Of a DNA stretch of 64,000 nt, positions 3,059-46,397 are shown piece after piece. Source of the DNA: a virus; IMG/VR virus record IMGVR_UViG_3300021197_001635, positions 72,013 through 136,012 of that record; one strand, 5' to 3'. The notes beneath the pieces are model-generated. The model saw only the letters and a program-made list of their open reading frames with translations. It was not told the DNA's origin and did not search any database. Made by a program: the position numbers and the translations under genes. The stretch's first letter is position 1, and each line of letters starts with the position of its first letter.

Positions 3059-4996
3059 ATGATTGAGTTGCCGACACCCTACCAACAGTTCATCCATCTA
3101 TCTAGATATAGTAGATGGTTAGATGAAGAAGGAAGAAGAGAGACTTGGAATGAGACTGTTAGTAGATATATGGGGTTCTTCAAGGAGCACTTGGAGAAGA
3201 CTCTGGGTTATAAGATGAGCGTAAATACCGAAAATACGGTTAAAAATGCTGTCCTCAATCTTGAAGTTATGCCCTCAATGCGATGTCTAATGACTGCTGG
3301 TGATGCATTAAAGAAAGATGCGGTTGCAGGATATAACTGTTCTTATCTGGCAATCAATAGAGTCAGAGCATTTGATGAAGTTCTTTACGCCCTGATGTGT
3401 GGCACTGGTGTCGGTTTTTCTGTGGAGAGAGAGTATGTATCTAAACTACCCACTATTGCAGAAGAATTTGAAGAATCAGATTCTACTATTGTTGTTCAAG
3501 ATTCAAGAATTGGTTGGTGTAAGGCTTACAGGGAGCTTGTCTCCCTACTTATTACAGGTCGTGTACCAAGATGGGACCTGTCACGTGTGCGTCCTAGTGG
3601 GTCGAGACTTAAGACTTTCGGAGGAAGAAGTTCAGGACCAGAAAGTCTGGAAGATCTATTTAGATTCACGGTGGAAGTCTTTAAGAAAGCATCTGGCAGA
3701 AAACTCACGACTATTGAGTGTCACGATCTCGTATGCAAGATTGCAGAAATTGTAGTGGTTGGTGGTGTGAGACGTTCCGCACTCCTTAGCCTTTCATCCT
3801 TGACAGATGAGAGAATGAGAGATGCCAAGCAGGGACAATGGTGGGTGATTGAACCACAACGTGCATTATCCAACAATTCGGTATGTTATAAGGAAAAGCC
3901 TGAGATTGGGACCTTCATAGAGGAGTGGTTGGCACTCTACAAGTCCAAATCAGGTGAAAGGGGCATCTTTAATAGAGACTCTGCCAAGACCACGGTGTCT
4001 AAAATCCAAGGTGGAAGAAGAGATCCCGATCATGACTTCGGTACTAATCCTTGCTCCGAGATTATACTTAGAGACAGAGAATTCTGTAATTTGTCAGAAG
4101 TGGTTGCAAGAGGAGATGACACGGTAGAGACTCTTAAGGAGAAGGTAAGACTTGCGGCAATCATAGGCACATGGCAGTCTACATTAACCGACTTTAGGTA
4201 TCTATCGGCAGAATGGAAGAAGAATTGTGAAGAGGAAAGACTCTTGGGTGTTTCTATCACGGGAATCATGGATTCTGTTCTTCTTAATGGAGACAAGAAA
4301 ACACTTGCTGCATTGCCTGGGCTACTAGAAGAATTAAGAGATATTGCAGTTAAGACCAATAAGGAGTGGGCATCTAGACTAGGTATCAATCCCTCTGCTG
4401 CTATCACCTGTGTTAAGCCTTCTGGTACTGTTTCTCAGTTGGTGGATTCTGCATCTGGTATTCATGCTAGACATAATCCATACTATATTAGAACTGTGCG
4501 TGCTAACGTTAAGGACCCGTTATGCAAATTCATGCAGGACAAGGGGTTCCCTTGTGAACCCTGCCACATGAAGCCTGATACAACCATGGTGTTCTCATTC
4601 CCAGTAGAGTCTCCCAAAAAGGCAATATTCAGACAGGATAAATCAGCCATCGAGCAGTTAGACTTATGGTTATTGTACCAAAAGCACTGGTGTGAACACA
4701 AGCCTTCTATCACGGTTTCGGTCATGGAGGGAGAATGGTTGGACGTTGGCACTTGGGTCTATAATAATTTCGACGATGTATGTGGGGTATCATTCCTGCC
4801 ATTTAGCGATCACTCATATAAGCAAGCACCTTATCAGGACTGTTCCAAAGAAGAATACAAGGTCTTGCTTAAGGAAATGCCCAAGGATATTGATTGGGAT
4901 GAATTGTGTGCATACGAGAAGGAAGATAACACGGCTGGCAGCCAGACGCTAGCATGCTCTGGGACGTCATGCGAGGTGGTTGACCTGACCCCATAA
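3059..4996 (+). CDS. nrdJ: Class II (adenosylcobalamin-dependent) ribonucleotide reductase, monomeric RTPR type
   Basis: MPSMR, GYNCSY, GGVRRSA, TNPCSE, FCNLSEV, ITCVKPSGTVSQL, C-terminal C..GTSCE. Confidence 0.92.
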   Translation: MIELPTPYQQFIHLSRYSRWLDEEGRRETWNETVSRYMGFFKEHLEKTLGYKMSVNTENTVKNAVLNLEVMPSMRCLMTAGDALKKDAVAGYNCSYLAINRVRAFDEVLYALMCGTGVGFSVEREYVSKLPTIAEEFEESDSTIVVQDSRIGWCKAYRELVSLLITGRVPRWDLSRVRPSGSRLKTFGGRSSGPESLEDLFRFTVEVFKKASGRKLTTIECHDLVCKIAEIVVVGGVRRSALLSLSSLTDERMRDAKQGQWWVIEPQRALSNNSVCYKEKPEIGTFIEEWLALYKSKSGERGIFNRDSAKTTVSKIQGGRRDPDHDFGTNPCSEIILRDREFCNLSEVVARGDDTVETLKEKVRLAAIIGTWQSTLTDFRYLSAEWKKNCEEERLLGVSITGIMDSVLLNGDKKTLAALPGLLEELRDIAVKTNKEWASRLGINPSAAITCVKPSGTVSQLVDSASGIHARHNPYYIRTVRANVKDPLCKFMQDKGFPCEPCHMKPDTTMVFSFPVESPKKAIFRQDKSAIEQLDLWLLYQKHWCEHKPSITVSVMEGEWLDVGTWVYNNFDDVCGVSFLPFSDHSYKQAPYQDCSKEEYKVLLKEMPKDIDWDELCAYEKEDNTAGSQTLACSGTSCEVVDLTP

Positions 4997-5336: not shown

Positions 5337-6506
5337 ATGAATATTTCAAAGAAAAAGTGGATGATGTACGGTGGTATTGCCGCTGCTATTCTAATCGCTT
5401 CGGTCGCGGTTGCTGATGGACCTTCATATGAAGACCTTCAGGCCCGTCTAGACGCAGCAGAGGCAAAGATCGCACAGATTGATTCCGACCGTGCTCCAAG
5501 CTGGTTGGAAAGCAGACGTAGTGAAGAAGTTCAATCGCTAGTGCAAGATGTCCTTGCCGATGCAGAAGCACGAACGATGATGCAGGGAGACAATTCCCCA
5601 GTCACCGTTAATCTTCATGGATTTGCCATCACCCGTTGGGATTACAACAATGGTGGTGGTGTGGCAAGAAATAATGAATTCAGCATTCCATATGCTCGAC
5701 TTGAAGTCTCAGGAGAGATCCTAGGCAAGGTTGGGTACTATGTCAGTGGTGAATTCAGTGACTACACGAATGGCAGCATGGATCTTGTCGACGCCTACCT
5801 CACAATGGATGTGGGTCTGGGAGTGGACATGATGGCTGGTCAGTTCGTGACTGCATTCTACCGAGGTTTCACTGATTCACCATTGGATCAGATCGCGGGA
5901 GAGTACAGTATTCTTGCTACCACTTTTGGTCAAGGACGATCGCAGGGCCTTCAATTCACCAAAGATTTTGGTTGGTTGGATCTCTCTGCCTCTTATAACG
6001 ACGGTTTCGACACCAGCAATTCATTCATGATGGACAATGACTATGGTGTCAGTGTTCGTGGTGATGTGGATTTTGGTGCTGGATTCCGTGCAGGTGCAGC
6101 CTATGCTTATCAGTCAGAACTTGAAGACTACGGTACTTACACCGTGGACTTCGGATATTCTACCGATAAGCTAGATGCACAGGTCTCATGGGTTTCTGCC
6201 GACTATGCTGTCGGTGGATACAGTGACAACTATGGCTTCAACGCTAGTGTTGCTTATCGTTGTGCTGCCGACTTTACTGGTTTTGTTAATTATCAATGGG
6301 GCAAGCTAGGAGTTGCTTCAGAAGATCTTAACGTGCTAGAAATCGGTGCTAACTACGATATCAACGAATACGTTCGTTGGACCACCACCTTGGGTTATGC
6401 ATTTGATGCTGTAGCCCCAGAGTGGAATACCGCTCGTTCTGGATGGAACAGCGGTTCGGAGAATGGTCAGTATCTACTGCGTACACAACTCAGTGTAAGC
6501 TTCTGA
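5337..6506 (+). CDS. Outer-membrane porin (phosphate-selective O/P-like, Planctomycete type)
   Basis: Signal peptide, periplasmic coiled coil (WLESRRSEEVQSLVQDVLADAE), alternating beta strands, C-terminal Phe (RTQLSVSF). Confidence 0.8.
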   Translation: MNISKKKWMMYGGIAAAILIASVAVADGPSYEDLQARLDAAEAKIAQIDSDRAPSWLESRRSEEVQSLVQDVLADAEARTMMQGDNSPVTVNLHGFAITRWDYNNGGGVARNNEFSIPYARLEVSGEILGKVGYYVSGEFSDYTNGSMDLVDAYLTMDVGLGVDMMAGQFVTAFYRGFTDSPLDQIAGEYSILATTFGQGRSQGLQFTKDFGWLDLSASYNDGFDTSNSFMMDNDYGVSVRGDVDFGAGFRAGAAYAYQSELEDYGTYTVDFGYSTDKLDAQVSWVSADYAVGGYSDNYGFNASVAYRCAADFTGFVNYQWGKLGVASEDLNVLEIGANYDINEYVRWTTTLGYAFDAVAPEWNTARSGWNSGSENGQYLLRTQLSVSF

Positions 6507-6759: not shown

Positions 6760-9027
6760 ATGGAAAAAACCGCTTTGAATACCAATCGTGACTCTAAGGA
6801 TATCCTCGCTCGACTGCTGGCGACCGAGAATATCTGTGTCGAACACCAACCAGTACCAACAGCATACTTCGATACAGTCGAACGTCGACTGGTCCTCCCA
6901 GTCTGGGAAAATATGGATAATGACCTTTACGACATGCTCGTTGGTCATGAAGTTGGTCATGCACTGTTCACCCCACATGGCAACGACTACACCAAGGCCG
7001 CAATCGAGCGAATCGATGCTGCTGCGCCTGATAGTCGAGTCATGCCATACCTGAATGTGGTCGAAGATGTCCGCATCGAGAAGGCAATCAAGGACAAGTT
7101 CCCAGGCCTTCGTCGCAATTTCATCAAGGCATACAAGGGCCTTGTTGACAGTGACTTCTTTGGAATCGCTGACAAGAATATCGATGAAATGTCGCTCATC
7201 GATCGAGTTAATGTACACTACAAGGTGGGCAACCACGTGGAAGTGGCATTTTCTTCCGAGGAGCAGGTCATCGTCGATCAGATCGATCAGGTCACCACAT
7301 GGGATGAGATGGTCGATGCCGCTGACGCATTGTACTCGCTCGCCAAAGAGCAGAAGCAGCAAGAGAAGCAGCAGGATCCTGATGATCAGGAAGAGTCTGC
7401 TTCTGCTGGTGACCACATGGACAACGAAGGTCAGTCCAGTTCTGCTGCCGATGAGGGCGACCAGTCCGACCAGACCGAGAACACCGATGGTGAAGGTGGA
7501 GAGCAGGGTGGTGAAGAGCAGGGTGATGACTCTGGTGACTCGATGGACGATGATACCGACGATGGTGAGTCTGCTGATAGTCAGATGTCTGACAGCAGCA
7601 GCGATTCTCAGGATGGTGGAAATCAGACAGTCGACCAGATGGTTGATATGTCAGATCTTCCTGATGAATGTGAGACACAGAAGTCGATGGAGAATGCCAT
7701 CGAGAAGATGACCGATCAGATTGATGACCGTCGTCGAGTCTATATCACAATGCCCAAGCCTGACCTCGATGCGATCGTCATTCCAGTGGGCAAGGTGATG
7801 GATGACTTCCGCAAGCACCTTGCTCGTGACCGATACGATAGTTATCGCGATGACTATCTTTCCGCTTGCTACAACATCTTCACCTCCTTCCAGAAGGATG
7901 TGTCCAAGACCGTCAACAAGATGGCACAGCAGTTCGAGATGAAGAAAGCAGCAGACCAGTACAAGAGACGTGCAGTTACCGATTCTGGTGTGCTCGACAC
8001 AATCAAGATGGTGAACTACCGATGGTCAGATGACGTGTTCCTGAAGAATACAGTCGTCCCTGGCGCTAAGAGTCACGGCATGATCATGTTCATCGACTGG
8101 AGTGGTTCGATGACTGATAAGATGTCCGATACCCTCAAGCAGTTGATGACTCTGATCATGTTCTGCAAGAAGGTCAACATCCCATACGATGTCTATGCCT
8201 TCACGAGCAGCTACGTAGAAGATCCTGACCGCTGCTCCGCTACCAGCCGCAGCTACAAGGAAGGAGATGGTTTGATTGGTGACCTCCGCCTTCTCAATCT
8301 CATGTCTTCCTCGATGAAGAATCGCGATTGGACAGAGATGATGACTTACATGACCATGCTCACCAATGCATATGCTAACACTAACGACAAGCACTTCACC
8401 ACTTCATATCGGGTGGTCCCACAGGGTTACCATCTGGGTTGCACACCTCTTGACGATGCAATCGTCTGTGCTGCTGCAGTTGCCAAGGATTTCAAGAATA
8501 CGTACAATACTCAGATTGTCAACACCATCTTCTTGACTGACGGTTGTACCTCCAGTAGTCCTCTTTCTGGTTATTATAGCGGTGCGAAGCATTACAAGAA
8601 CGGCCAGATGATCCATATTGATGGCATCGCTGTCCTCCGTGGCAAGCATGGCAAGATCTTCAACAATCACAAGACCACGACAGACAATCTGCTTGAATGG
8701 TTCACAGCAGAGACTGGTATCCCAGTGCTGGGCATCTACGTTTGCCGCGACCGAGAGCTATACTACCTCTGCAATGAAGTCACCGATGAGATGTACACGA
8801 AGTTCAAGGCAGAAAAGAGCCTGGTGCTTGAGAATAGCGGTGGTTACAAGTCATTGTACGTGATGAATTCGACGAACACCAAGAAGGTCAAAGGCATCGA
8901 TGATCTTTCTGGAGTAGTCAAGCCCGTGATGGTCAAGAATGCCATGGTCCGCGAGGCAAAGGCACGTAAGGCACAGCAGCGGATCATGGACACATTTGTC
9001 GCTAATATCTCCAAGGAGACAGTTTGA
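6760..9027 (+). CDS. CobT-like protein: metallopeptidase-like N-terminus, acidic linker, VWA domain
   Basis: HEVGH..NVVED.RIE; D/E/S/G-rich linker; MIDAS DWSGSM, TPL, FLTDG; known T4-like phage family. Confidence 0.85.
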   Translation: MEKTALNTNRDSKDILARLLATENICVEHQPVPTAYFDTVERRLVLPVWENMDNDLYDMLVGHEVGHALFTPHGNDYTKAAIERIDAAAPDSRVMPYLNVVEDVRIEKAIKDKFPGLRRNFIKAYKGLVDSDFFGIADKNIDEMSLIDRVNVHYKVGNHVEVAFSSEEQVIVDQIDQVTTWDEMVDAADALYSLAKEQKQQEKQQDPDDQEESASAGDHMDNEGQSSSAADEGDQSDQTENTDGEGGEQGGEEQGDDSGDSMDDDTDDGESADSQMSDSSSDSQDGGNQTVDQMVDMSDLPDECETQKSMENAIEKMTDQIDDRRRVYITMPKPDLDAIVIPVGKVMDDFRKHLARDRYDSYRDDYLSACYNIFTSFQKDVSKTVNKMAQQFEMKKAADQYKRRAVTDSGVLDTIKMVNYRWSDDVFLKNTVVPGAKSHGMIMFIDWSGSMTDKMSDTLKQLMTLIMFCKKVNIPYDVYAFTSSYVEDPDRCSATSRSYKEGDGLIGDLRLLNLMSSSMKNRDWTEMMTYMTMLTNAYANTNDKHFTTSYRVVPQGYHLGCTPLDDAIVCAAAVAKDFKNTYNTQIVNTIFLTDGCTSSSPLSGYYSGAKHYKNGQMIHIDGIAVLRGKHGKIFNNHKTTTDNLLEWFTAETGIPVLGIYVCRDRELYYLCNEVTDEMYTKFKAEKSLVLENSGGYKSLYVMNSTNTKKVKGIDDLSGVVKPVMVKNAMVREAKARKAQQRIMDTFVANISKETV

Positions 9028-9521
9028 TGGATCTTTTCGAAAGAGCATTAGTAGTCATAGTTTTTTCCTTTATGACTTGGTTCGCCATAGCCTCCACTGC
9101 GTATGCGGTGGAGGTGGGCGACATCAAAAAGCAGAATAAGTCCCTTCGCAAGCTGCTCGACGCAATTTGTGAGGTGGAATCAGGCTGCGATTCTTCCGCA
9201 GTTGGTGATAATGGAAAAGCCATCGGTGCTTATCAGATTTGGGAGAGTTATTGGATCGATGCCTGCAATTATAGCAGGAACGACGACTTGAGTCTTGACG
9301 ACGGTTATGAAAGTTGCCTAGATAAGGAATACGCAGAGAAAGTAGTGTTGACTTATTGGGAACGATATGCCAACGAGAAAAGACTTGGACGCAAACCAAC
9401 ACTCGAAGACAGAGCACGAATGCACAATGGTGGACCTCGTGCTGTATGGGCGAAGGGCAAGAAGAAGGAGAATCTTGACCTGTATTGGGAGAAGGTAAGT
9501 GAGGTACTTAACGGAGGCTGA
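9024..9521 (+). CDS. Destabilase/i-type lysozyme-like protein with N-terminal hydrophobic segment
   Basis: AICEVESG, GAYQIW..YWIDA, YWERYA, ARMHNGGP. Confidence 0.7.
   Translation: MMDLFERALVVIVFSFMTWFAIASTAYAVEVGDIKKQNKSLRKLLDAICEVESGCDSSAVGDNGKAIGAYQIWESYWIDACNYSRNDDLSLDDGYESCLDKEYAEKVVLTYWERYANEKRLGRKPTLEDRARMHNGGPRAVWAKGKKKENLDLYWEKVSEVLNGG

Positions 9522-12180: not shown

Positions 12181-12203
<23 letters not shown>
11922..12203 (+). CDS. Hypothetical protein
   Basis: ORF with GAGGA SD, fills the gap between the tRNAs and guaB. Confidence 0.55.
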
Positions 12204-14284
<2,081 letters not shown>

Positions 14285-21263: not shown

Positions 21264-21919
21264 AATCATTTAAGCAATTCATAAAAGAGCAGCAAATGGG
21301 TGGTGGACCTCCAGGCGGTTTCCCAGACGATTTGCCTGATTGGCCAGAAGAAGATATGTGGGATACTATAAACGATGATGGGACTTGGACTTCTGGAGGA
21401 TATACTTGGTATATTCGAGATGGTCAACTATATGTATACATAGATGGAGAATGGTACTTGCGTGGTGCTTCACTAGACACTGGTGAAGACGAAGATTCGA
21501 CCGCAAATGGACGAGATGGGATAGACTGGCGTGATAGTTATGGTCTCCTGTTCCAGATTCTTATAGATTTGGGATATAGTATTAAAGAAATACGTGAACT
21601 GGGCATTCCAGTCCCTGAACATGAGCCATGGGAGGACCCCAAGGACGACCCTGATTACGACCCAAATGTGGATGGGATACCACCTTGGTGGGACCAACCA
21701 AATAACCCCCCACCACCTCTCCCCGATGGAACTGATCCTGTTTATCTAGAGGATGGTCCATATGGACCAGGCTGGTACTATGATGATGAATTTACTCCAG
21801 TTCTTCCAGAAGATTATGAATCAGGCATGATGTCTAATTATGGACCATCTGGGGTAGCGGCCATGCCTTCATCTATACCATCGCTTACACCTAATATCAA
21901 GGGTGGAGGACCCAAATGA
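21260..21919 (+). CDS. Acidic W/P/D/G-rich putative internal protein (MKSFKQFIKE leader)
   Basis: Leader, ATGA overlap, composition. Confidence 0.75.
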   Translation: MKSFKQFIKEQQMGGGPPGGFPDDLPDWPEEDMWDTINDDGTWTSGGYTWYIRDGQLYVYIDGEWYLRGASLDTGEDEDSTANGRDGIDWRDSYGLLFQILIDLGYSIKEIRELGIPVPEHEPWEDPKDDPDYDPNVDGIPPWWDQPNNPPPPLPDGTDPVYLEDGPYGPGWYYDDEFTPVLPEDYESGMMSNYGPSGVAAMPSSIPSLTPNIKGGGPK

Positions 21920-22872
21920 AGTCATTTAAGCAATTCATCATAACTAAGGCAGATATAGACAGTATCACATATGGTACTCCTACCGTCCAACAGCAAGAGA
22001 GAATGGACAAGGAACTGGAGTATTTTGATGACAGTATATATGACCTAGTTACGATGGGGTGTGCACCGAGCAATACCAGCGACACTACCAAGAAAGAATT
22101 GTATTACCTACACAGGGTAGAAAAAAACGAAGAAATGTTTGAAAAGTATGACATGCATTTTTCTCCCTCTATATTCGGTTATGCTAGAGATAATGGTCTA
22201 GACTTTGATGAAGAAGAACTTAGACGGATAAAAAGAGAAGCATCTAACATATTGCTACACGTAAAATTCCACTTTAACAGGCCTAGACCTTATCAGATAG
22301 CGGACTCCCTTGGTATGGAGCTAGACCACATGAATACCGAATCTGGTCACACACCCTCATACCCCAGCGGGCATGCAGGTTTGGCAAGGCTATTGGCACT
22401 GCTGATTGCTAAAGACAACCCAGATTATAAAGACGAACTAATCGCCATCGCGGATGAGATAGCCTTATCTAGAGAGATAGGCGCTGTTCATTTTCCCTCA
22501 GACAATGATTTTGGTAAAGAAGTTGCCAATATAATGTATAGCGAACTCACTGGTGAGGAATTGCAGGAATGTGATTGCGGTTGTGATGAGCGTTTAGATG
22601 AGGCAGAATACCAAGGCAAGAAGGTAACATTAAATAAGCCTTTTAGAACGCCTGGAGAATCTAAGAAATTTGCAGTTTATGCCAAGAATGATAAAGATAA
22701 AGTGGTAATTGTTCGATTTGGTGACCCGAATATGGAAATCAAGAGGGATGACCCGAAGAGATTAAAAGCATATCGCTCAAGAATGGGTTGCGACACCGAT
22801 CCAGGACCCAAATGGAAAGCAAACTACTGGTCTTGTTATCAGTGGAGAGCTGGTGCAAAAGTAGACGACTAA
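21916..22872 (+). CDS. PAP2-family phosphatase fused to a conserved T4-like basic domain; leader-bearing
   Basis: KFHFNRPRP, SYPSGH, SREIGAVHFPSD; LDEAEYQGKKVTLNKPF..VRFGDP..YWSC. Confidence 0.8.
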   Translation: MKSFKQFIITKADIDSITYGTPTVQQQERMDKELEYFDDSIYDLVTMGCAPSNTSDTTKKELYYLHRVEKNEEMFEKYDMHFSPSIFGYARDNGLDFDEEELRRIKREASNILLHVKFHFNRPRPYQIADSLGMELDHMNTESGHTPSYPSGHAGLARLLALLIAKDNPDYKDELIAIADEIALSREIGAVHFPSDNDFGKEVANIMYSELTGEELQECDCGCDERLDEAEYQGKKVTLNKPFRTPGESKKFAVYAKNDKDKVVIVRFGDPNMEIKRDDPKRLKAYRSRMGCDTDPGPKWKANYWSCYQWRAGAKVDD

Positions 22873-35812: not shown

Positions 35813-36574
35813 CTAGATACCCAATATACTATTTCTTCTTTCATTCTTAATTTCCTCTTCGATCCAATCATAGACAATATCTACTCTAGTAGCAGAGTTT
35901 TCATAAATCATGTCTTTATACATGCTAAATGCGGATATAATACCTACGACGTAAAAGTCGCCGTCAATAAGCATAAACAATGGTCCACCCGAGTCTCCGA
36001 ACCATACAGAGCCTCCTATGGGAAGCATCTTAAGGTTGGTAGGTTCGCTTTCTAGTGTGCCGTAATAGAAAAGGGTGTCTAGTTTGCTTCTCTTTTTGAA
36101 CCCTCTGGAATATCCGACAGATACTATTGGTGTGCCCTTCATGGTATCAACCAGCGATTTGGAGTTAATATTGGAAGGTCTTATCCCACGCACATAGGTG
36201 TCTAGGAATATAATAGCCACGTCGTGTTCTATTTTCAAAAATGCACTATACTCAGGATGCTTTAGGGAGCACTTAATACTATACAACTCGTCCCCGAATT
36301 GTACAAAAGACTCATCATTCCTGATGCAGTGGGCAGCAGTTAATACCACGTCTTCTTCAATCAGCACTACGGAACATTTAGGACGCAAGTCGTCATCCAA
36401 TAATCTACCCACTGATGGGAATTCGCCCTCAGATATGGTGACAAACCCTTCTACATTGGGTGTTACTTCTATTTTTGGTGGGGGTGGACTTTCTGTCTTG
36501 GGTGGAACCACTTTAGTGGCACACCCTGCTGCACATAACAAAATAGCTGATAGATGAACTATCTTTCTTAACAT
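35813..36574 (-). CDS. Trypsin-like serine protease, predicted lipoprotein
   Basis: LTAAHC, HDVAI, GDSGGP; lipobox CAAG-C. Confidence 0.88.
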   Translation of the reverse strand: MLRKIVHLSAILLCAAGCATKVVPPKTESPPPPKIEVTPNVEGFVTISEGEFPSVGRLLDDDLRPKCSVVLIEEDVVLTAAHCIRNDESFVQFGDELYSIKCSLKHPEYSAFLKIEHDVAIIFLDTYVRGIRPSNINSKSLVDTMKGTPIVSVGYSRGFKKRSKLDTLFYYGTLESEPTNLKMLPIGGSVWFGDSGGPLFMLIDGDFYVVGIISAFSMYKDMIYENSATRVDIVYDWIEEEIKNERRNSILGI

Positions 36575-36582
36575 GTCCTCTT

Positions 36583-36590
36583 TATTTATA
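36583..36590 (-). promoter_or_regulatory. T4-type late promoter TATAAATA
   Basis: TATTTATA on + just upstream of the protease gene. Confidence 0.6.
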
Positions 36591-36612
36591 AGAACCAGAG
36601 GTTCCAGCCATA

Positions 36613-36685
36613 CCCCTTCCTGATATCAAGAAGGCATATACCACCCCTTGTATATCTCCTAGGGGGTATACCACCCGTTGTATAT
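36613..36685. repeat. Element copy 2 (shared with 6611-6701)
   Basis: CCCCTTCCTGATATCA..ATACCACCCCTTGTATATCTCCTAGGGGGTATACCACCCGTTGTATAT. Confidence 0.9.
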
Positions 36686-36741
36686 ACCCTAACGTGACCC
36701 TAACGTCATGTTAAGGTTTTGTTTAGATACTAGGCAATATA

Positions 36742-36770
36742 TTGACAGATAGGCTAGCCTGTGGTACAAT
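36742..36770 (+). promoter_or_regulatory. Early sigma70-type promoter
   Basis: TTGACA-17-TACAAT with TG extension. Confidence 0.85.
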
Positions 36771-36811
36771 GGGTTATAAGGTTGGGGATCGTCCCACCCA
36801 TTTCAGGAGAT

Positions 36812-38191
36812 ATGCCCAATATGGCAACAAAGCAATCAATCAAGGCACGCGAAGACTTCATCAAGGCGATGAAGGATGCGGGTCTTTCTGGCATCGTGAC
36901 CAGAAGTCAGATCAAGGATCTTTGCAAGAGCACTGGCATCTATGCCTGTCCTCCTTCTTGGATCTCACAGGACCATTCTCGCCGAACTGGTGTTGTCGGT
37001 GAATACATCATGCCAGAGCTTGATGATGCCCCAGCACCAAAGGCAGCACCAGTTGCCACTGCCACTGCCACCATCCCCAGTGGAGAGGTGAAGACTGCAG
37101 ACACCTGCAGTGCTACTATGGCACTCGCCATGACTGGTGGTGCAAGTGAGTCCCTCGTGCCCGATAAGATCGACACCTACGTCCAGTGGGGTCACTTCAA
37201 GGACATCGAGACGATCATTCGCACCAAGATGTTCTACCCTTGCTTCATCACTGGTCTCTCTGGCAACGGCAAGACCACCATGGTCGATCAGGTCTGTGCG
37301 AAGCTCAGACGCGAGCTGTTCCGAGTGAATATCACCACGCAGACTGATGAAGATGATCTGCTGGGTGGGTTCCGCCTCATCAATGGCGAGACCATCTGGA
37401 CTGATGGTCCCGTGGTCAGAGCGATGAAGCAGGGTGGGATTCTTCTTCTGGACGAGATCGACCTTGCGTCACATGCGATCATGTGTCTCCAGCCTGTGCT
37501 GGAAGGCAAGGGTGTCTTCCTCAAGAAGATTGGTCAGTGGGTCAAGCCCGCGCCTGGTTTCCAGATTTTCGCTACTGCCAATACCAAGGGCAAGGGTAGC
37601 GACGACGGTCGATTCATTGGTACGAATGTCCTCAATGAGGCATTCCTTGACCGATTCTCCGTGTGCTACGAGCAGGAATATGCTCCGAAGTCCACCGAGC
37701 AGAAGATCCTCACCAAGGCGATGCAGTCGCTCGGCTGCGAGGACAAGGAGTTCACCAAGAATCTGGTTACTTGGGCAGATATGATCCGCAAGTGCTACTA
37801 TGAAGATGCGGTTGATGAGATCATCACTACTCGACGCCTGGTCAATGTCGCTACGGCATTCTCCATCTTTGGTGATCGTGCCAAGGCAATCGAAATGGCA
37901 GTCACCCGATTTGATGACTCCACCAAGGAAGCCTTCCTCACGATGTATGGCAAGATTGATGCCAAGGTGGACATGTCGGATGCTGAAGATCAGCCTGATC
38001 CCAGCACTGCTGTCCGATTTAACCTCAGTTGCAGCTACGACGACAAGGATGAGGCTAAGCGTGCGGGTGCTCAGTGGGATAAGAAGACCAAGACTTGGTG
38101 GATCACTGGGGACGAGTACAGGAATAATCCCACGACATGGGACAAGTGGAGTCCAGCCCCAGTTGCTGACCTCCAAGAATGCCCGTTCTGA
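36812..38191 (+). CDS. MoxR/CobS-like AAA+ ATPase with C-terminal DUF5710-like domain
   Basis: GLSGNGKT, LLLDEID, TANTKGKG, NEAFLDRF, TTRRLV; SYDDKDEAK..GAQWD..KTWW. Confidence 0.9.
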   Translation: MPNMATKQSIKAREDFIKAMKDAGLSGIVTRSQIKDLCKSTGIYACPPSWISQDHSRRTGVVGEYIMPELDDAPAPKAAPVATATATIPSGEVKTADTCSATMALAMTGGASESLVPDKIDTYVQWGHFKDIETIIRTKMFYPCFITGLSGNGKTTMVDQVCAKLRRELFRVNITTQTDEDDLLGGFRLINGETIWTDGPVVRAMKQGGILLLDEIDLASHAIMCLQPVLEGKGVFLKKIGQWVKPAPGFQIFATANTKGKGSDDGRFIGTNVLNEAFLDRFSVCYEQEYAPKSTEQKILTKAMQSLGCEDKEFTKNLVTWADMIRKCYYEDAVDEIITTRRLVNVATAFSIFGDRAKAIEMAVTRFDDSTKEAFLTMYGKIDAKVDMSDAEDQPDPSTAVRFNLSCSYDDKDEAKRAGAQWDKKTKTWWITGDEYRNNPTTWDKWSPAPVADLQECPF

Positions 38192-38837: not shown

Positions 38838-39158
38838 ATGAGTAGTTACAACGAATTGAGCAGCAAGAGACAAATGTATATTGAAGCCATCGTGAAGCAT
38901 GGTGGAGATTTGGGAATCGACGTCACGAAGACGCAGTACAATAGGACTGAACTGCGATCGATCTCGATGACACATAAGGGCAAGAAGTGGATCCCCAATT
39001 GGATCACCCATGACAAGGATCGTCGTGCTGGAGTTGGTGTCTTCTTCATTCCTGAGGTACGAGACTATTATGGTCTGCATGTCGGATTCGAGCCTGAGAC
39101 AGACGAAGGGGTCGATTTCGATTCGGTGGTAGAGACCGCCGATACAGCAGGGGTCTGA
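38838..39158 (+). CDS. Stand-alone paralog of the AAA ATPase N-terminal domain
   Basis: R.ELR....IPNWITHDKDRRAGVGVFFIPEV versus RSQIK....PPSWISQDHSRRTGVVGEYIMPEL. Confidence 0.7.
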   Translation: MSSYNELSSKRQMYIEAIVKHGGDLGIDVTKTQYNRTELRSISMTHKGKKWIPNWITHDKDRRAGVGVFFIPEVRDYYGLHVGFEPETDEGVDFDSVVETADTAGV

Positions 39159-39171
39159 GCACCCCTGTAAG

Positions 39172-39244
39172 GGGCTGGTAGCTCAGCGGTTAGAGCACCC
39201 GACTCATAATCGGTTAGTCGTCGGTTCGAATCCGACCCAGCCTA
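39172..39244 (+). tRNA. tRNA with CAU anticodon (probably Ile2; Met not excluded)
   Basis: GGGCTGG/CCAGCCT, CGA-CT-CAT-AA-TCG arm resembling bacterial tRNA-Ile2. Confidence 0.85.
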
Positions 39245-39258
39245 TTTTGGAGAAAAAA

Positions 39259-39504
39259 ATGGAAACCACACAGAAGCAAGTAAACGAATTTCTCGACCAA
39301 CTTCGGATCGCAGGTAAGACCAATATGTTTGGTGCGGTTCCTTACCTTCAAAAGAGATTCGGAATCAACAAGTACGATGCACACAGATTTCTGGTGAATT
39401 GGATGGCTATCGTTTCACAGGATGAATGGGATAGTATGAAGGGTGTTCTTGAAGACAGACTGGTCAAAGAGGCAGAAGAGGAGGCAGAGAATGAATCCAG
39501 ATGA
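39259..39504 (+). CDS. Conserved phage hypothetical protein
   Basis: FLDQLR..G.TNMFGA.PYL motif. Confidence 0.7.
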   Translation: METTQKQVNEFLDQLRIAGKTNMFGAVPYLQKRFGINKYDAHRFLVNWMAIVSQDEWDSMKGVLEDRLVKEAEEEAENESR

Positions 39505-39880
39505 ATATCAGACTAAAGTATCCTGTTGTATATCCAAATGGACTTTGACCAAGGACGGTCTTGTATACGTTTTCAGACGATACACCTCCTCAGACAAAAC
39601 AATTGAGATATGCGAGCCTGATGGCAACATAATCAATGTAGCTGTTGAATCTGCTAGGGCGGTTTGGGAAACCCTGATCAACAACGGATTCGTGATCAAG
39701 AAAGAGGAACCACCAGTCCCGAAGAAAAAGCAGATTCGACGACAGGATTCTCGGAAGATGAAATGGGCAGAAGCGGTACGGATGACTCTCCAAGAGAAAG
39801 AACGACACGACCGCTTTGAGAAAGCTATTGAGATGGTGGACAAGACGTTTGGTAAAAAGAATTATGCAATGGAGGCATGA
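39491..39880 (+). CDS. Hypothetical protein
   Basis: Packed ORF. Confidence 0.55.
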   Translation: MNPDEYQTKVSCCISKWTLTKDGLVYVFRRYTSSDKTIEICEPDGNIINVAVESARAVWETLINNGFVIKKEEPPVPKKKQIRRQDSRKMKWAEAVRMTLQEKERHDRFEKAIEMVDKTFGKKNYAMEA

Positions 39881-39881
39881 A

Positions 39882-40145
39882 ATGAACAACAACGATGCTT
39901 ATACAACTTTTGTGCTCAGCGACGCGATCGATGCATTGCGTATTTCTGAGGAGAGAATGCAAGACCCATTCGCCCCAGCAGAACAGATGATTGGAATGCT
40001 ACAGGCAACTCTAGCAATCATCATCAGGTTAACCAATGGGTATGATGAGTCCAATTTCACCGATGATGAGGTGAAACTGGTGCATAGGGTGACCGAACTT
40101 GCCAATGAAGTGGCAGAAGAGATTTACACAGGAGGCAATCAGTAA
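39882..40145 (+). CDS. Hypothetical protein
   Basis: GGAGG SD; packed ORF. Confidence 0.55.
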   Translation: MNNNDAYTTFVLSDAIDALRISEERMQDPFAPAEQMIGMLQATLAIIIRLTNGYDESNFTDDEVKLVHRVTELANEVAEEIYTGGNQ

Positions 40146-40474
40146 TGGCTGGAAACGCAATTTTCGTATTTAACAACAACGAGCAGAGGGAGAAGTTCTT
40201 CTCCCATAGCATCCTAGAGAAGCACTCTATCAACGAAGACACAATGGAGACTGACACCAATTGCAGAATCCGTGTACCTTCTGGTGACTGGAAGTCCAGT
40301 GACAACCCGCTTAAGATACAGAAAAGGCTGTCAGAAGTAGCAGAAGTAGCTAAGACGTTCGGCGCTGAATGTCATATGGATTGTGGCGGTGACAATATGA
40401 CCGACTGCGGAGACCATGAAAGAAGCTGCGGACAATTATGCGACTTCTGTATGTTCTCTGAGAACAGGGGTTGA
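40145..40474 (+). CDS. Hypothetical protein with Cys-rich C-terminus
   Basis: AGGAGG SD; TAATG overlap. Confidence 0.55.
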   Translation: MAGNAIFVFNNNEQREKFFSHSILEKHSINEDTMETDTNCRIRVPSGDWKSSDNPLKIQKRLSEVAEVAKTFGAECHMDCGGDNMTDCGDHERSCGQLCDFCMFSENRG

Positions 40475-40499
40475 CAGAAGAAAAAAGCCATGGTATAAT
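40471..40499 (+). promoter_or_regulatory. Early sigma70-type promoter
   Basis: TTGACA-17-TATAAT. Confidence 0.88.
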
Positions 40500-40525
40500 G
40501 GGGTTTCAACAGTGAAGGAAAGACA

Positions 40526-40873
40526 ATGACAGCAGTACTAAAAGAATTCAAAAAAGAAGTGAAGATGGCTGGTCCCACCAGACTTCTGAACATGGAAGAG
40601 ATATCGATTTCAGACCTATATAATTGCCTAGGTGAAGGCATTTGTGAGATCAAGTACCTAGGTCCCGATGGAGTGGAGGAGATTAAGTCCTGCACCCTAA
40701 GAGGATCGTGGGTCGAGATCGACAAAAAGGATGACTGGATTGACCATGAATACGAAAAAGGAATCATGGTAGTCTGGGACATGAGTGGAGATGAATGGAG
40801 GGGTGGTTCTTGGATACAGATTCCAATTGATCGGATCACCTTTTTTGAGCAACTTACTGGAGTGCACCGATGA
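40526..40873 (+). CDS. WYL_2/SH3-like protein
   Basis: I.Y...DG....CTL..VVWD....WR pattern. Confidence 0.5.
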   Translation: MTAVLKEFKKEVKMAGPTRLLNMEEISISDLYNCLGEGICEIKYLGPDGVEEIKSCTLRGSWVEIDKKDDWIDHEYEKGIMVVWDMSGDEWRGGSWIQIPIDRITFFEQLTGVHR

Positions 40874-41489: not shown

Positions 41490-41518
41490 TTGACAGAATA
41501 GATAGTCTGTGGTATAAT
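41490..41518 (+). promoter_or_regulatory. Early sigma70-type promoter
   Basis: TTGACA-17-TATAAT. Confidence 0.85.
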
Positions 41519-42235: not shown

Positions 42236-42260
42236 GACCCCGTACGTAACGGGGTCTTTT
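42236..42260 (+). terminator. Rho-independent terminator
   Basis: GACCCCGT-ACGTA-ACGGGGTC-TTTT. Confidence 0.8.
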
Positions 42261-42266
42261 CATATA

Positions 42267-42295
42267 TTGACAGAAGATCCAAGCCATGGTATAAT
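42267..42295 (+). promoter_or_regulatory. Early sigma70-type promoter
   Basis: TTGACA-17-TATAAT. Confidence 0.88.
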
Positions 42296-43534: not shown

Positions 43535-44608
43535 ATGATTGAATCTGGTAAAGTGAATTTTCTAATCGATGGTCAGTGGGGAAGCACTGGCAAGGGCAAA
43601 CTTGCTGGTTACATGTACAGCAAGCATGACAACCTGAGAATGGCAATTAGCGATAATATGCCAAATGCGGGTCACACCTTCACAAGAGACGGCAAGAATT
43701 TCATCTTCAAGGCACTTCCCACTGGTGTTCTTTTCGATAATGTGACGTCGCTCATCGGTCCACAAGCAGTAATGGGCGAAGAACAGTTCCAATACGAGAT
43801 GGAAATGGTGAAAAACGAAATCGGTCATTACCCCAAGGTAATTATCCACCCGATGGCGACGGTTGTCACCGCCAGTGACAAAGATGCTGAGGCAGGAATC
43901 GTCAGCAAGATGGCAAGCACTGGTCAGGGATCATGTTCTGCTACAGTTAAGAAGATGTGGAGACGAGGAGAGGCAAATCTTGCCAAGAACAGCAAGGTAT
44001 TCGGAGAGTACGTAGGAGATACGCACAATTTCTTGCATATGGGACTTAAGAAAGGTGATGCAGCACTTTCAGAAGGCAGTCAAGGTTTTGATCTTTCTAT
44101 GAACTGCGGACACGCCTATCCACACACCACATCACGCGATTGCCTGATCGGCAGAATGATGGACAATGCTGGTTGTCCAGTTAAATCAGTGGGCAGCATC
44201 ATCGCTTGTCTGAGGACACTGCCAATCCGAGTGGGTAGCACTGAGAACACCAGTGGTCCTTATTATGATGATCAGAACGAGATAGACTGGAAGATGGTAT
44301 CTGAAATGTGCGGTCAAGACGTAGAAGAGAGAACCACAGTCACCCAGAGAGTGCGTAGGGTCTTCACCTTCTCCGAAGAGCAGACCAGAAAATTCTGCGA
44401 GTATGTACGTCCAGACTATGCATTCCTGAACTTCGTCAATTATTACAAGGACGAGCAGGAGAGAACGTCAGCAGTAGAATCTGTTGCCTCCATCTTGACA
44501 GAGTATGGTTGTGATCTTACACTGCTTGGGACAGGTGCAGAACTGGAGGATATGGTAGTCACCGATAATGAAACCATCCTCAACAAGCAGGAAACCTTAT
44601 TCGCATGA
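43535..44608 (+). CDS. purZ: PurZ-type N6-succino-2-amino-dAMP synthetase (adenylosuccinate synthetase family)
   Basis: DGQWGSTGKG (Ser in place of the PurA Asp), NMPNAGHT, IHPMATV, STGQGS, EGSQGF.LS, TSRDC, PIRVG, TTVT.RVRRVF.FS, FLNFVNY; 357 aa. Confidence 0.8.
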   Translation: MIESGKVNFLIDGQWGSTGKGKLAGYMYSKHDNLRMAISDNMPNAGHTFTRDGKNFIFKALPTGVLFDNVTSLIGPQAVMGEEQFQYEMEMVKNEIGHYPKVIIHPMATVVTASDKDAEAGIVSKMASTGQGSCSATVKKMWRRGEANLAKNSKVFGEYVGDTHNFLHMGLKKGDAALSEGSQGFDLSMNCGHAYPHTTSRDCLIGRMMDNAGCPVKSVGSIIACLRTLPIRVGSTENTSGPYYDDQNEIDWKMVSEMCGQDVEERTTVTQRVRRVFTFSEEQTRKFCEYVRPDYAFLNFVNYYKDEQERTSAVESVASILTEYGCDLTLLGTGAELEDMVVTDNETILNKQETLFA

Positions 44609-45162
44609 TAATTAACTGTGTAATAGGTCAGGCTGGAAGTGGAAAATCTACCTTCATAGGACAGAAATTCCCTAGGGACCAGTACATTTTCTTTGATGTG
44701 GGTGACATCCTGAGAGGGATGTTTACCTGCTTCAAGGGCAATCAGGGCAATAAGAATGTCTGGAGCTTTGCTAACCCGTTGGTGTATAGCATTATGAAGA
44801 AGTGCGTCAGCATCTCTTCTAAGACCAATTACCCAGTTGTATTTGATGGATTTCCCAGAAATTCCACTCAAGTCAGGCATCTCCACCGATACCTTACCTC
44901 CCCTAGATTGGGGAAGGTGGAGGTGCTGGTTCATTGTTTAGACATAAATATGGATGAGCAAATGTCCAGAATTGAGAAACGGAATGGTGGTCTAGACGAA
45001 TATCAGATCAAGAGGATCAAGCAGTCTAGGAACGATTTTGAGGGTGTCATAGAAGAAGTAGAGAAACTGATGCTAGACTCCCGAAACCATCCAGTATCCT
45101 ATAAATGCATGTGGTACAAACAGGTAGATGATGGATTCACACTAGAACAACCTAGGAGATAG
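44605..45162 (+). CDS. Adenylate-kinase-like nucleoside monophosphate kinase
   Basis: GQAGSGKST P-loop, DVGDILR, FDGFPRN..Q; ATGA overlap with purZ. Confidence 0.8.
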   Translation: MIINCVIGQAGSGKSTFIGQKFPRDQYIFFDVGDILRGMFTCFKGNQGNKNVWSFANPLVYSIMKKCVSISSKTNYPVVFDGFPRNSTQVRHLHRYLTSPRLGKVEVLVHCLDINMDEQMSRIEKRNGGLDEYQIKRIKQSRNDFEGVIEEVEKLMLDSRNHPVSYKCMWYKQVDDGFTLEQPRR

Positions 45163-45164
45163 AA

Positions 45165-45719
45165 ATGGCATCATTTAATATAGAAATACCCGATGAATAT
45201 CTAGGTGGTGGTGAAGATTTCGGTTTCACCACCGTCGATGCTGATGTTTTCGAGCAGCAGAACCAGCAAGAAAGAGAAGTAGCAGAAGAAGTTGCTGGTG
45301 AGATTTCTTCCAGTCTTACCAATCAGATCAATTCTAAGATGAGCATCTTAGAGGGAAAGATAAATGCTGTCTTATCCAGACTGGAAGATAGCACTGGGGA
45401 AGATGCCATAGATTCATCCATAGACGTGAATAGGATCGAAGACAAAATAGATAAGATCCTAGCTATGGAGAACACTGAACTCGCACAGTCGATACAAGAC
45501 CAAGGTGCAAGTATACGTGCTGTAATCGATGAGGTAGAAGAGAGAAAGAACCAACTAGAGACTCTGCATGCAGAGAAAATGATAGATCTAGAGAAACTGG
45601 TATTACCTCTGCTCATTAACCTCACTAAGAATCCAGAGAAAGAATACCTATACTGGCCTGATAGAGTTAGTAAAGTTCAAGATCAGATCAAGAGGGTTCT
45701 GGAAGTAACCAGAGGGTAA
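45165..45719 (+). CDS. Conserved T4-like coiled-coil protein
   Basis: DFGFT.VD..LPLL.NL.KNPEKEY.YWPDR. Confidence 0.7.
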   Translation: MASFNIEIPDEYLGGGEDFGFTTVDADVFEQQNQQEREVAEEVAGEISSSLTNQINSKMSILEGKINAVLSRLEDSTGEDAIDSSIDVNRIEDKIDKILAMENTELAQSIQDQGASIRAVIDEVEERKNQLETLHAEKMIDLEKLVLPLLINLTKNPEKEYLYWPDRVSKVQDQIKRVLEVTRG

Positions 45720-45725
45720 TAAGTC

Positions 45726-46397
45726 ATGCGTGAATTATTTGAACATGTGGGTCTTCCAGACCAACTGATGGGAACCGATTTGGGTGTTACCAACAAGAGC
45801 GGTAAGAGGTTCTATAAGGCGCCTGGTGGTGAACTACTGCCTAGCGTAACCACTGTGACTGGATGGGAGAAAAGACAATTTTTCGCAGAGTGGAGAAGGA
45901 AAAATCCGCAAGAGTCGAAGAGGGTTCTGTCTCAAGGAACTTCGCTGCATAAAGTGATTGAAGACTATCTTAATAATGATGCTGATTATATGGGCAATGC
46001 TAAACCCAAAGTAATGAATCTATTTAACTACATCAAGCCTTTGCTTCATAAAATCAAGAAGATAAGAGCACAAGAAGTGGCATTGTGGAGCACCAAGATA
46101 GGTCTAGCAGGTAGGGTAGACTGCATTGCTGAATATGACGGAAAACTGTCTGTCATAGACTTCAAGAGTAGCAAAAGAGAGAAGAAAGTAGAATATATTG
46201 ATAACTACTTCGCTCAGGCTACTGCATACTCTCTAATGTGGCAAGAAATCACTGGTATACCGATTGAGCAGATAGTAATACTGATATCTAGCGAAGACGG
46301 TACTATACAAGAATTCACGGATAAACCGATAAGCCATGTTGCAAGACTTAAAGAGATGATCGATGCCTACAACTTGGACTGTGGTGTCACCTTGTAG
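45726..46397 (+). CDS. PD-(D/E)xK (Cas4-like) exonuclease
   Basis: PSVTTV, GT.LH, AGRVDCIAEYDG.LSVIDFK, Q..AY. Confidence 0.85.
   Translation: MRELFEHVGLPDQLMGTDLGVTNKSGKRFYKAPGGELLPSVTTVTGWEKRQFFAEWRRKNPQESKRVLSQGTSLHKVIEDYLNNDADYMGNAKPKVMNLFNYIKPLLHKIKKIRAQEVALWSTKIGLAGRVDCIAEYDGKLSVIDFKSSKREKKVEYIDNYFAQATAYSLMWQEITGIPIEQIVILISSEDGTIQEFTDKPISHVARLKEMIDAYNLDCGVTL

Follow-up and report, generated by a model that had tools for sequence, protein, structure and literature searches.

A PurZ-type adenylosuccinate synthetase homolog and a coupled nucleotide kinase gene in an uncultured T4-like phage lineage, with a predicted route to 2-aminoadenine nucleotides

Can a T4-like phage replace the adenine of its DNA with 2-aminoadenine (Z)? 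The question is raised by a single gene, purZ, in a stretch of 64,000 nucleotides (the window), which corresponds to bases 72013-136012 of a linear viral record of 136,012 bases (IMG/VR record IMGVR_UViG_3300021197_001635; G000). A sequence-only reading of the window had taken this gene for a PurZ, a synthetase acting on deoxyguanosine monophosphate (dGMP), in a T4-like phage. The gene is located as follows.

43535-44608, + strand: purZ, encoding a 357-amino acid (aa) adenylosuccinate synthetase homolog of the PurZ type, with Ser for the Asp13 of PurA; a single intact open reading frame with an ATG start

The full explanation that we favor, and regard as reasonably probable from the sequence, is a self-contained phage route from dGMP to the diphosphate of the Z deoxynucleoside (dZDP) that would feed a T4-type replisome.

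Phages with Z in their DNA have been described among siphoviruses and podoviruses (PMC8342488, PMC8599892). Their genomes are ~40-80 kb in length and encode hydrolases dedicated to deoxyadenosine and deoxyguanosine triphosphates (dATP/dGTP), and most groups also have a family-A polymerase that is selective for Z (PMC8342488, PMC8599892, PMC12884076). Seven groups are distinguished in PMC12884076, which makes no mention of myoviruses, T4-like phages, family B, a kinase, or a deaminase, and a recent preprint (bioRxiv 10.1101/2025.10.22.683976) makes no mention of myoviruses, T4-like phages, polymerase B, or jumbo phages. More than 2,000 viruses have been predicted by PurZ homology (PMC13128860). 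The sequence-only reading knew of no description of Z made for a T4-type replisome, and our literature search agrees: no report of PurZ or aminoadenine in a myovirus or T4-like phage was found, although some contigs of the lineage may be present in published lists of PurZ viruses.

The open reading frame was confirmed, and its translation was found to contain every motif listed by the sequence-only reading: WGSTGKG (residues 15-21), NMPNAGHT, IHPMATV, STGQGS, PIRVG, TTVTQRVRRVFTFS, and FLNFVNY. An AGGAG ribosome-binding motif lies ~10 bases 5' of the ATG. The match to the Pfam family Adenylsucc_synt (PF00709; E-value 2.1e-27, 96.4 bits, cut-off 27) establishes homology to adenylosuccinate synthetase over the full length, and the PHROG family phrog_1211, annotated as '2-aminooxy adenylosuccinate synthetase', was matched with an E-value of 8.3e-63. 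When the protein was searched against the PDB with phmmer, the highest score was obtained with the group 6FKO/6TNH/6FM1 (E-value 2.3e-56, 194.8 bits, aligned residues 6-339). We take this group to be the PurZ of Vibrio phage phiVC8; the 20-residue offset of the chain reproduces the published phiVC8 numbering. Lower scores were obtained with 7ODX 'PurZ' (109.2 bits), the archaeal-type PurA entries 5K7X/2D7U (89.8 bits), 7VF6 (73 bits), and the PurA from E. coli (55.8 bits). Among the NCBIfam models, the PurZ model NF038379 ranks first with 215 bits, ahead of archaeal-type purA (144.9 bits) and bacterial purA (114.6 bits).

The residues expected of a PurZ were examined using the numbering of phiVC8. 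In this enzyme, F295 and Y298 are named for the adenine ring of ATP, and P233, Y244, W252, and S273 are among the differentially conserved PurZ positions (bioRxiv 10.1101/2025.10.22.683976). The protein of the window (the query) belongs to a clade of 30 sequences described below, and S14, T262, F295, Y298, P233, Y244, W252, and an aromatic W12 are kept in all 30 members; position 273 is either T or S. The Ser at the catalytic Asp13 site of PurA is S17 in the WGSTGKG of the query and is likewise found in 30/30 clade members, and the G-S motif was seen in 69 of 72 related PurZ-like loci. These loci were collected by an alignment-based scan of a viral contig collection; scans of the same collection with the single proteins P0030 and P0027 returned no loci. 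The pocket for dGMP's 2-amino group is kept in the query as W15 (an aromatic residue replacing F), S17, and the initial T of TTVT, and the F and Y of the ATP-type donor pocket in FLNFVNY are those found throughout the clade. At the same columns, the PurA from Salmonella has D at 14, K at 295, and V at 298, and in the PurZ0 proteins of phages Ghobes and Aledel the loop reads E-A and position 298 is Q. The Asp-to-Ser signature and the phiVC8-like FLNF.NY end proposed by the sequence-only reading are both borne out, and scores, residues, and tree alike place the query with PurZ, apart from PurZ0 and PurA. From these features and the selection described below, the gene is quite likely to encode a functional enzyme of the PurZ type that uses ATP.

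The phylogeny was determined from 70 rows, namely the query, 9 reference proteins, P0001-P0030, and every third of P0031-P0120, with rows shorter than 300 aa dropped. A quick IQ-TREE run was made with LG+G4 and supports from the Shimodaira-Hasegawa-like approximate likelihood ratio test (SH-aLRT), without bootstrap. The query falls in a 30-row clade (SH-aLRT 100), which forms part of a larger clade of 66 rows (97) together with five reference PurZ proteins (phiVC8, BUCT555, ZP6, S-2L, and Acinetobacter phage 53). Outside the 66-row clade are the PurZ0 proteins of Ghobes and Aledel and the PurA from Salmonella. The phylogeny suggested by the sequence-only reading therefore groups the query with PurZ, apart from PurA and PurZ0, in a set of rows that holds no archaeal PurA. 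The query clade is known from metagenomes only.

It could be asked whether the gene is an inactive relic or a product of misassembly. No supporting point was found for this explanation, and we consider it extremely improbable. All 6 related loci spanning the whole gene have an uninterrupted reading frame (the contigs of L007 and L013 end inside purZ), the close PurZ clade comprises 29 protein clusters, and the order of the purZ block is kept in independently assembled contigs. The ratio of nonsynonymous to synonymous substitution rates (dN/dS) was determined to be 0.040, 0.082, and 0.037 in three pairs with unsaturated dS, which indicates strong purifying selection. Two long relatives were compared with G000, namely G001 (136,240 bases) and G002 (126,210 bases). 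The PurZ proteins are 92% identical in G001 and 83% identical in G002, and the corresponding values are 73% and 60% for gp43 and 68% (G001) for gp23. Since dS for purZ between G000 and G001 is 1.66, the 92% identity of the proteins reflects constraint and not recent transfer.

The T4-like nature of the phage, claimed by the sequence-only reading, was confirmed with PHROG and Pfam. The genes of T4 type on the contig are those for the baseplate wedge (gp6/7/8), large terminase (gp17), sheath (gp18), gp19-like tube, portal (gp20), scaffold, major head protein (gp23), UvsW, UvsX, UvsY, RNase H, gp32, gp41 helicase, the family-B polymerase gp43, the gp45 clamp, gp46, and gp47. Among 2,685 matching records of cultured phages, none exceeds 49% identity to the gp43 protein, and cyanomyoviruses come closest; this T4-like lineage is therefore without a cultured member. 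CheckV estimated the completeness of the record at 75%. However, the gene map of G001 is a circular permutation of that of G000, with each broken at a different place: the end genes of G000 are adjacent to each other in G001 (~98.7-99.5 kb) and in G002, and the end genes of G001 are adjacent to each other in G000 (~33.1-33.8 kb). The ~136-kb genome is therefore essentially complete, and the CheckV value is too low. The break in G000 adjoins a Gly-rich, collagen-like fiber gene. The window is represented in public sequencing runs by 15 entries from 6 studies, each covering no more than 0.15 of it, as assembled contigs; no RNA run is listed.

The purZ gene is followed directly by three genes on the same strand.

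44605-45162, + strand: nucleoside monophosphate (NMP) kinase of the adenylate kinase/UMP-CMP kinase family, 185 aa, a candidate kinase for the Z deoxynucleoside monophosphate (dZMP)
45165-45719, + strand: conserved acidic protein of 184 aa between the kinase and the exonuclease, with no Pfam, NCBIfam, or PHROG match
45726-46397, + strand: PD-(D/E)XK exonuclease (Pfam PDDEXK_1, E-value 2.1e-07; phrog_298, E-value 2e-60), at the end of the conserved purZ block and syntenic in relatives

The ATG of the kinase gene overlaps the stop codon of purZ (ATGA), an arrangement that indicates translational coupling. The kinase scores 26.4 bits with the Pfam family ADK, just below the cut-off of 26.8, and matches the NCBIfam adk subfamily with an E-value of 8.6e-09. 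Its P-loop, G..LR, and DGFPR..Q motifs are invariant in 20 homologs (G8, G13, K14, G33, R37, D81, G82, P84, R85, and Q89). The structure model, with a mean predicted local distance difference test score (pLDDT) of 91.1, has a fold of the adenylate kinase type, and in a Foldseek search short adenylate kinases ranked at the top (E-value 1.5e-07, template modeling score ~0.6), together with UMP/CMP kinases. No match to the kinase was found by tblastn among 50,697 phage records, and no report of a phage dZMP kinase was found in the literature. The kinase gene lies directly 3' of purZ in 6/6 related loci with downstream DNA. Kinase homologs are found 3' of PurZ-like genes in 25 of the 72 loci, down to ~35-45% PurZ identity; 9 of these loci belong to the T4-like clade and 16 to other clades. 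The acidic protein follows the kinase in 5 of the 9 kinase-bearing loci of the T4-like clade.

Two sigma-70-type promoters, each predicted by consensus match only, lie upstream of purZ.

42267-42295, + strand: sigma-70-type promoter, 12/12 consensus positions with an extended -10, directly after a terminator-like hairpin (42236-42256)
41490-41518, + strand: second sigma-70-type promoter, 12/12 with an extended -10

By its position and consensus, the promoter at 42267-42295 likely drives an early unit of small genes together with purZ and the kinase, and the presence of two perfect promoters 5' of purZ suggests early expression.

The phage also encodes the lyase that would follow PurZ.

35846-37306 of the contig (outside the window): adenylosuccinate lyase of the PurB type (Lyase_1), 486 aa, between the genes for gp47 and gp46

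This protein best matches TIGR00928 with 284.3 bits, which is under the cut-off of 326, and scores no more than 31 bits with the argH, fumC, and aspA models. In the PDB search, human adenylosuccinate lyase (5NX8) was matched with an E-value of 7.6e-97. PurB was found in all three long PurZ genomes of the lineage. It is absent from 14/14 gp43-similar contigs without an observed PurZ, two of which measure 91 and 154 kb. In the same 16-record search, PurB was also not found in a 48-kb PurZ-bearing fragment (G003). A PurZ search of 14 gp43-related contigs was negative (0/14) but carries little weight, the contigs being fragmentary or not covering the purZ region. Only 17 of the 50,697 phage records contain a match to PurB, and none of them is listed as a T4-like phage. 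The coupled NMP kinase and the phage-encoded PurB are the strongest supporting context for the making of Z.

Four further genes of the window could supply or drain purines and deoxynucleotides.

12181-13278, + strand: inosine monophosphate (IMP) dehydrogenase (IMPDH) without the CBS subdomain, 365 aa (Pfam IMPDH, E-value 5e-125)
13226-14284, + strand: enzyme of the adenosine/adenine deaminase family, 352 aa (Pfam A_deaminase, E-value 7e-92; NCBIfam NF006850, 556 bits, above the cut-off of 419)
3059-4996, + strand: class II (B12-dependent) ribonucleoside-triphosphate reductase (RTPR; phrog_367, E-value 1e-186; NCBIfam RTPR, 307.8 bits, cut-off 340)
559-1635, + strand: GlnII-type glutamine synthetase (NCBIfam gln_syn_GlnII, 403 bits, cut-off 500; Pfam Gln-synt_C and Gln-synt_N)

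The IMPDH scores 390.6 bits with the NCBIfam model IMP_dehydrog versus ~163-200 bits with the models for GMP reductase, and it is 98% identical in G001 and 59% identical in G002. The deaminase gene overlaps the IMPDH gene. Against the PDB, the deaminase scores 430.5 bits with 3OU8 and 379.8 bits with 3RYS versus at most 119 bits with the classical adenosine deaminases; the group of 3OU8/3PAO is presumably that of the adenine deaminases. Both the IMPDH and the deaminase have almost no counterparts in genuine phage records. The identities between G000 and G001 are 98% for IMPDH, 94% for the Dut-like protein, and 92% for both PurZ and RTPR among the proteins of nucleotide metabolism, compared with 66% for gp20, 68% for gp23, and 73% for gp43 in the structural and replication core; the kinase is 55% identical. 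The 98% identity of IMPDH may reflect a recent exchange.

The genes, their families, linkage, and conservation are observations, whereas their substrates, the parts played by kinase, lyase, and deaminase, and whether and how far Z enters the DNA are predictions from sequence, which run as follows. Either dGTP or the breakdown of host DNA would provide the dGMP. PurZ would couple dGMP to aspartate, using ATP, to form N6-succino-2-amino-2'-deoxyadenylate (dSMP), and the phage PurB would remove fumarate from dSMP to give dZMP. The adenylate kinase-like enzyme coupled to purZ would convert dZMP to dZDP. A host nucleoside-diphosphate kinase (NDK) is proposed for the conversion of dZDP to the triphosphate (dZTP) because no member of the NDK family was found in G000, G001, or G002 (0/3). 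The T4-type replisome with its family-B gp43 would then place Z opposite T. The supply of guanine nucleotides is probably raised by IMPDH, the class II reductase, and glutamine synthetase, the last of which might support the guanosine monophosphate (GMP) synthase of the host. Adenine is probably drained by the adenine deaminase-type enzyme in the place of DatZ. Together, the deaminase and IMPDH would channel adenine-derived purine toward guanylate, which would both supply PurZ and shrink the pool of adenine.

Several findings weigh against this route to Z DNA. The 215 bits obtained with NF038379 fall short of the curated cut-off of 300 bits, which is an annotation rule and not a biochemical feature. 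The query clade is sister to the characterized PurZ proteins and lies outside their own 5-row clade (SH-aLRT 100). In addition, PurZ, PurB, IMPDH, and the deaminase can be read as a general set for purine interconversion. The score and this gene set would fit ordinary auxiliary metabolism of purines, in which a PurA-like enzyme acting on IMP or its deoxy form (dIMP) and aspartate would operate with PurB, IMPDH, and the deaminase to rebalance the A/G pools of the host for a burst of normal DNA. We find this explanation improbable in view of the Ser that replaces Asp13 of PurA in all 30 clade members and of the Phe, as in phiVC8 PurZ, at the position of the GTP-pocket Lys of Salmonella PurA. The PurA models also score lower than the PurZ model, as given above, and an adenine deaminase and an IMPDH would be of little use for making more adenylate since both push A toward G.

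The remaining adverse findings concern the helpers of the classical Z phages. The sequence-only reading saw no DatZ or MazZ in the window, and this observation holds for the whole contig and for the two long relatives as well. No matches at E-values up to 1 were found in G000, G001, and G002 to HD, HD_3, and YfbR-like domains (PF01966, PF12917, and PF13023) or to MazG and DUF550 (PF03819 and PF04447). Six-frame phmmer searches of the three genomes with three DatZ references and three MazZ/MazG/DUF550 references gave no match at E-values up to 10, and the same searches with the proteins neighboring the PurZ0 genes of Ghobes and Aledel gave a dUTPase homolog as the sole match. The family-A polymerase (PF00476) was found in none of the three T4-like genomes (0/3) and is present in 9 of 10 other long PurZ-bearing records, whereas the family-B polymerase is present in all three and, among the 13 PurZ-bearing records examined, only there. 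Because the genome is essentially complete, the absences of the HD-domain dATP triphosphohydrolase DatZ, the (d)GTP-dATP pyrophosphohydrolase MazZ/DUF550, and the family-A DpoZ are real. In a further protein of 532 aa (contig 39033-40631, outside the window), the C-terminal part weakly matches an N6_N4 DNA-methylase domain (28 bits, cut-off 26.7); if its target is the N6 of adenine, this protein would be in keeping with DNA in which A is retained. S-2L eliminates dATP from the pool (PMC8342488). With no known dATP-removing enzyme encoded here, the substitution may be only partial.

The main rival explanation follows from these absences. It supposes that dZTP is made but that Z is used partially or conditionally, either in mixed A/Z DNA or as nucleotides for other ends, for example to disturb the enzymes or defense of the host. 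The lack of all classical dATP/dGTP hydrolases from an essentially complete genome, the lack of a DpoZ-type polymerase, and the weak methylase domain are all consistent with it. The strong conservation of purZ fits a core role, and three functions that could drain adenine are predicted, namely those of the adenine deaminase-type enzyme, a DUF4406 protein, and the dUTPase homolog with its N-terminal insertion. We judge partial or conditional use of Z to be unlikely.

The candidates for the exclusion of dATP, by family membership, are the dUTPase homolog, a DUF1599-like protein, and the DUF4406 protein, none of which is specific to PurZ phages. The gene for the dUTPase homolog (contig 64978-65556), which has an N-terminal insertion of ~40 aa, overlaps that for the DUF1599-like protein of 129 aa, and the pair (64978-65942) lies directly 5' of the gp43 gene. 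The same order is found in L033, L034, and L049, where purZ was not seen, its region lying outside these contigs. The dUTPase homolog matches Ghobes gp55 with an E-value of 5.7e-06 and, as a further adverse point, is unlike the Dut encoded next to purZ in other PurZ phages that are uncultured. It was rejected as an equivalent of DutZ, its nearest relatives being the ordinary dUTPases of large myoviruses (Sinorhizobium phage phiM12 and Stenotrophomonas phage Moby; at most 37% identity). The DUF1599-like protein is weakly MazG-like, with a Pfam E-value of 0.001 (below the cut-off) and a model pLDDT of only 64.1. It has no sequence match in the PDB and no Foldseek match at E-values up to 0.001, the weak top rows being pyrophosphatases of the MazG type, and homologs are encoded by Pelagibacter phage HTVC008M and Methylophilales phage Melnitz. 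The DUF4406 protein, of the nucleoside-deoxyribosyltransferase clan, was rejected as an equivalent of DmtZ; it is unspecific, with matches in 416 phage records, and has no solved relative by sequence.

The preferred route from dGMP to dZDP can be extended to a fully Z-substituted genome. In this more far-reaching proposal, which is possible but doubtful, the lineage would replicate a 136-kb genome containing Z throughout with an ordinary family-B replisome, using the PurZ-PurB-kinase route, and would remove adenine by rerouting of purines. The deaminase would convert adenine to hypoxanthine, IMPDH would convert IMP to xanthosine monophosphate (XMP), and GMP, dGMP, and Z would follow. If true, this would be a third way to Z DNA, independent of DatZ, MazZ, and DpoZ.

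The system was compared with those described previously. The query is of the same fold and length class as phiVC8 PurZ, with ~39% identity by tblastn, and shares the GSTGKG with Ser, T262, and F295/Y298 in FLNFxNY. It differs in having W for F at position 12 and T for S at position 273, and in belonging to a separate, uncultured clade. Moreover, phiVC8 is a 39-kb phage with DatZ adjoining purZ and a family-A polymerase, whereas the phage described here is a 136-kb T4-like phage with a family-B polymerase and neither DatZ nor MazZ. The likeness to T4 itself is one of logic. T4 makes hydroxymethyl-dC with gp42, the deoxynucleoside monophosphate kinase gp1, and the dCTPase gp56. By analogy, a T4-type phage would here make a noncanonical deoxynucleoside monophosphate, phosphorylate it with its own kinase, and pass it to a gp43 replisome. 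In the present case, however, a purine and not a pyrimidine would be replaced, and no gp56-like homolog that would clear dATP from the pool was identified.

The same first committed step, dGMP to dSMP, is predicted as in the Z cluster of S-2L (PurZ, MazZ, and DatZ; PMC8342488). The genes purZ, mazZ, and datZ are adjacent in S-2L; here MazZ and DatZ are absent, and PurB and an NMP kinase are encoded by the phage. In the known Z pathway, PurB and GMP kinase are supplied by the host, and the host GMP kinase is the sole kinase mentioned in the preprint (bioRxiv 10.1101/2025.10.22.683976). A Z pathway without DatZ or MazZ is also found in the PurZ0 phages Ghobes and Wayne (DutZ and DmtZ; PMC12884076). 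Like these phages, the present one has a dUTPase homolog, and its DUF4406 protein belongs to the deoxyribosyltransferase clan. However, the enzyme here has GSTGKG and an F/Y pocket, compared with GSEAKG and Q at 298 in PurZ0. The Dut is like those of ordinary large myoviruses, DUF4406 is common in phages for which Z DNA has not been reported, and neither gene adjoins purZ.

The closest parallel to the gene order was found in cassettes of uncultured phages (L094-L141), in which a homologous NMP kinase gene lies directly 3' of a Ser-type PurZ gene at 16 loci outside the T4-like clade. These cassettes usually add a Dut like Ghobes gp55 after the kinase, in contrast to the T4-like clade, where an adjacent Dut was seen in 0 of 11 loci. 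The cassette loci (L094-L103, L107, L108, L112, L116, L122, L136, and L141) have no DatZ nearby, and only L141 is without the Ser motif because the end of the contig cuts purZ. A jumbo phage (L134; G025, 395,473 bases with direct terminal repeats) with a sheath gene carries a PurZ-like gene with DGQWGSTGKG at 33% identity, and PurZ-like genes outside the T4-like lineage are therefore also not confined to small phages. The first enzyme of the route is thus a known one. What differs is the type of virus and the family of the polymerase; in addition, a lyase and a kinase are encoded by the phage, and DatZ, MazZ, and DpoZ are lacking.

One further nucleotide gene was identified in the window.

1632-2381, + strand: ThyX thymidylate synthase (Pfam Thy1, E-value 4.5e-46)

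Other cargo is found at 6760-9027, 9024-9521, 21916-22872, 35813-36574 (- strand), 36761-38191, and 5337-6506, and includes a large peptidase (phrog_459), a destabilase-type lysozyme, a PAP2 phosphatase, a trypsin-like protease, a CobS-like ATPase, and a porin-O/P-like protein.

If the predicted route is true, two phage-encoded steps that are otherwise assigned to the host, the PurB lyase and the candidate dZMP kinase, would be added to the biosynthesis of Z, and the T4-type family-B replisome would be able to work with dZTP in nature. These genes provide concrete candidate enzymes for the making of Z DNA in vitro without DatZ or DpoZ. Methods that respond to modified bases may misjudge how abundant marine contigs of this kind are. 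More kinds of virus than at present would be expected to use Z, and abundant marine T4-like phages would be among them.

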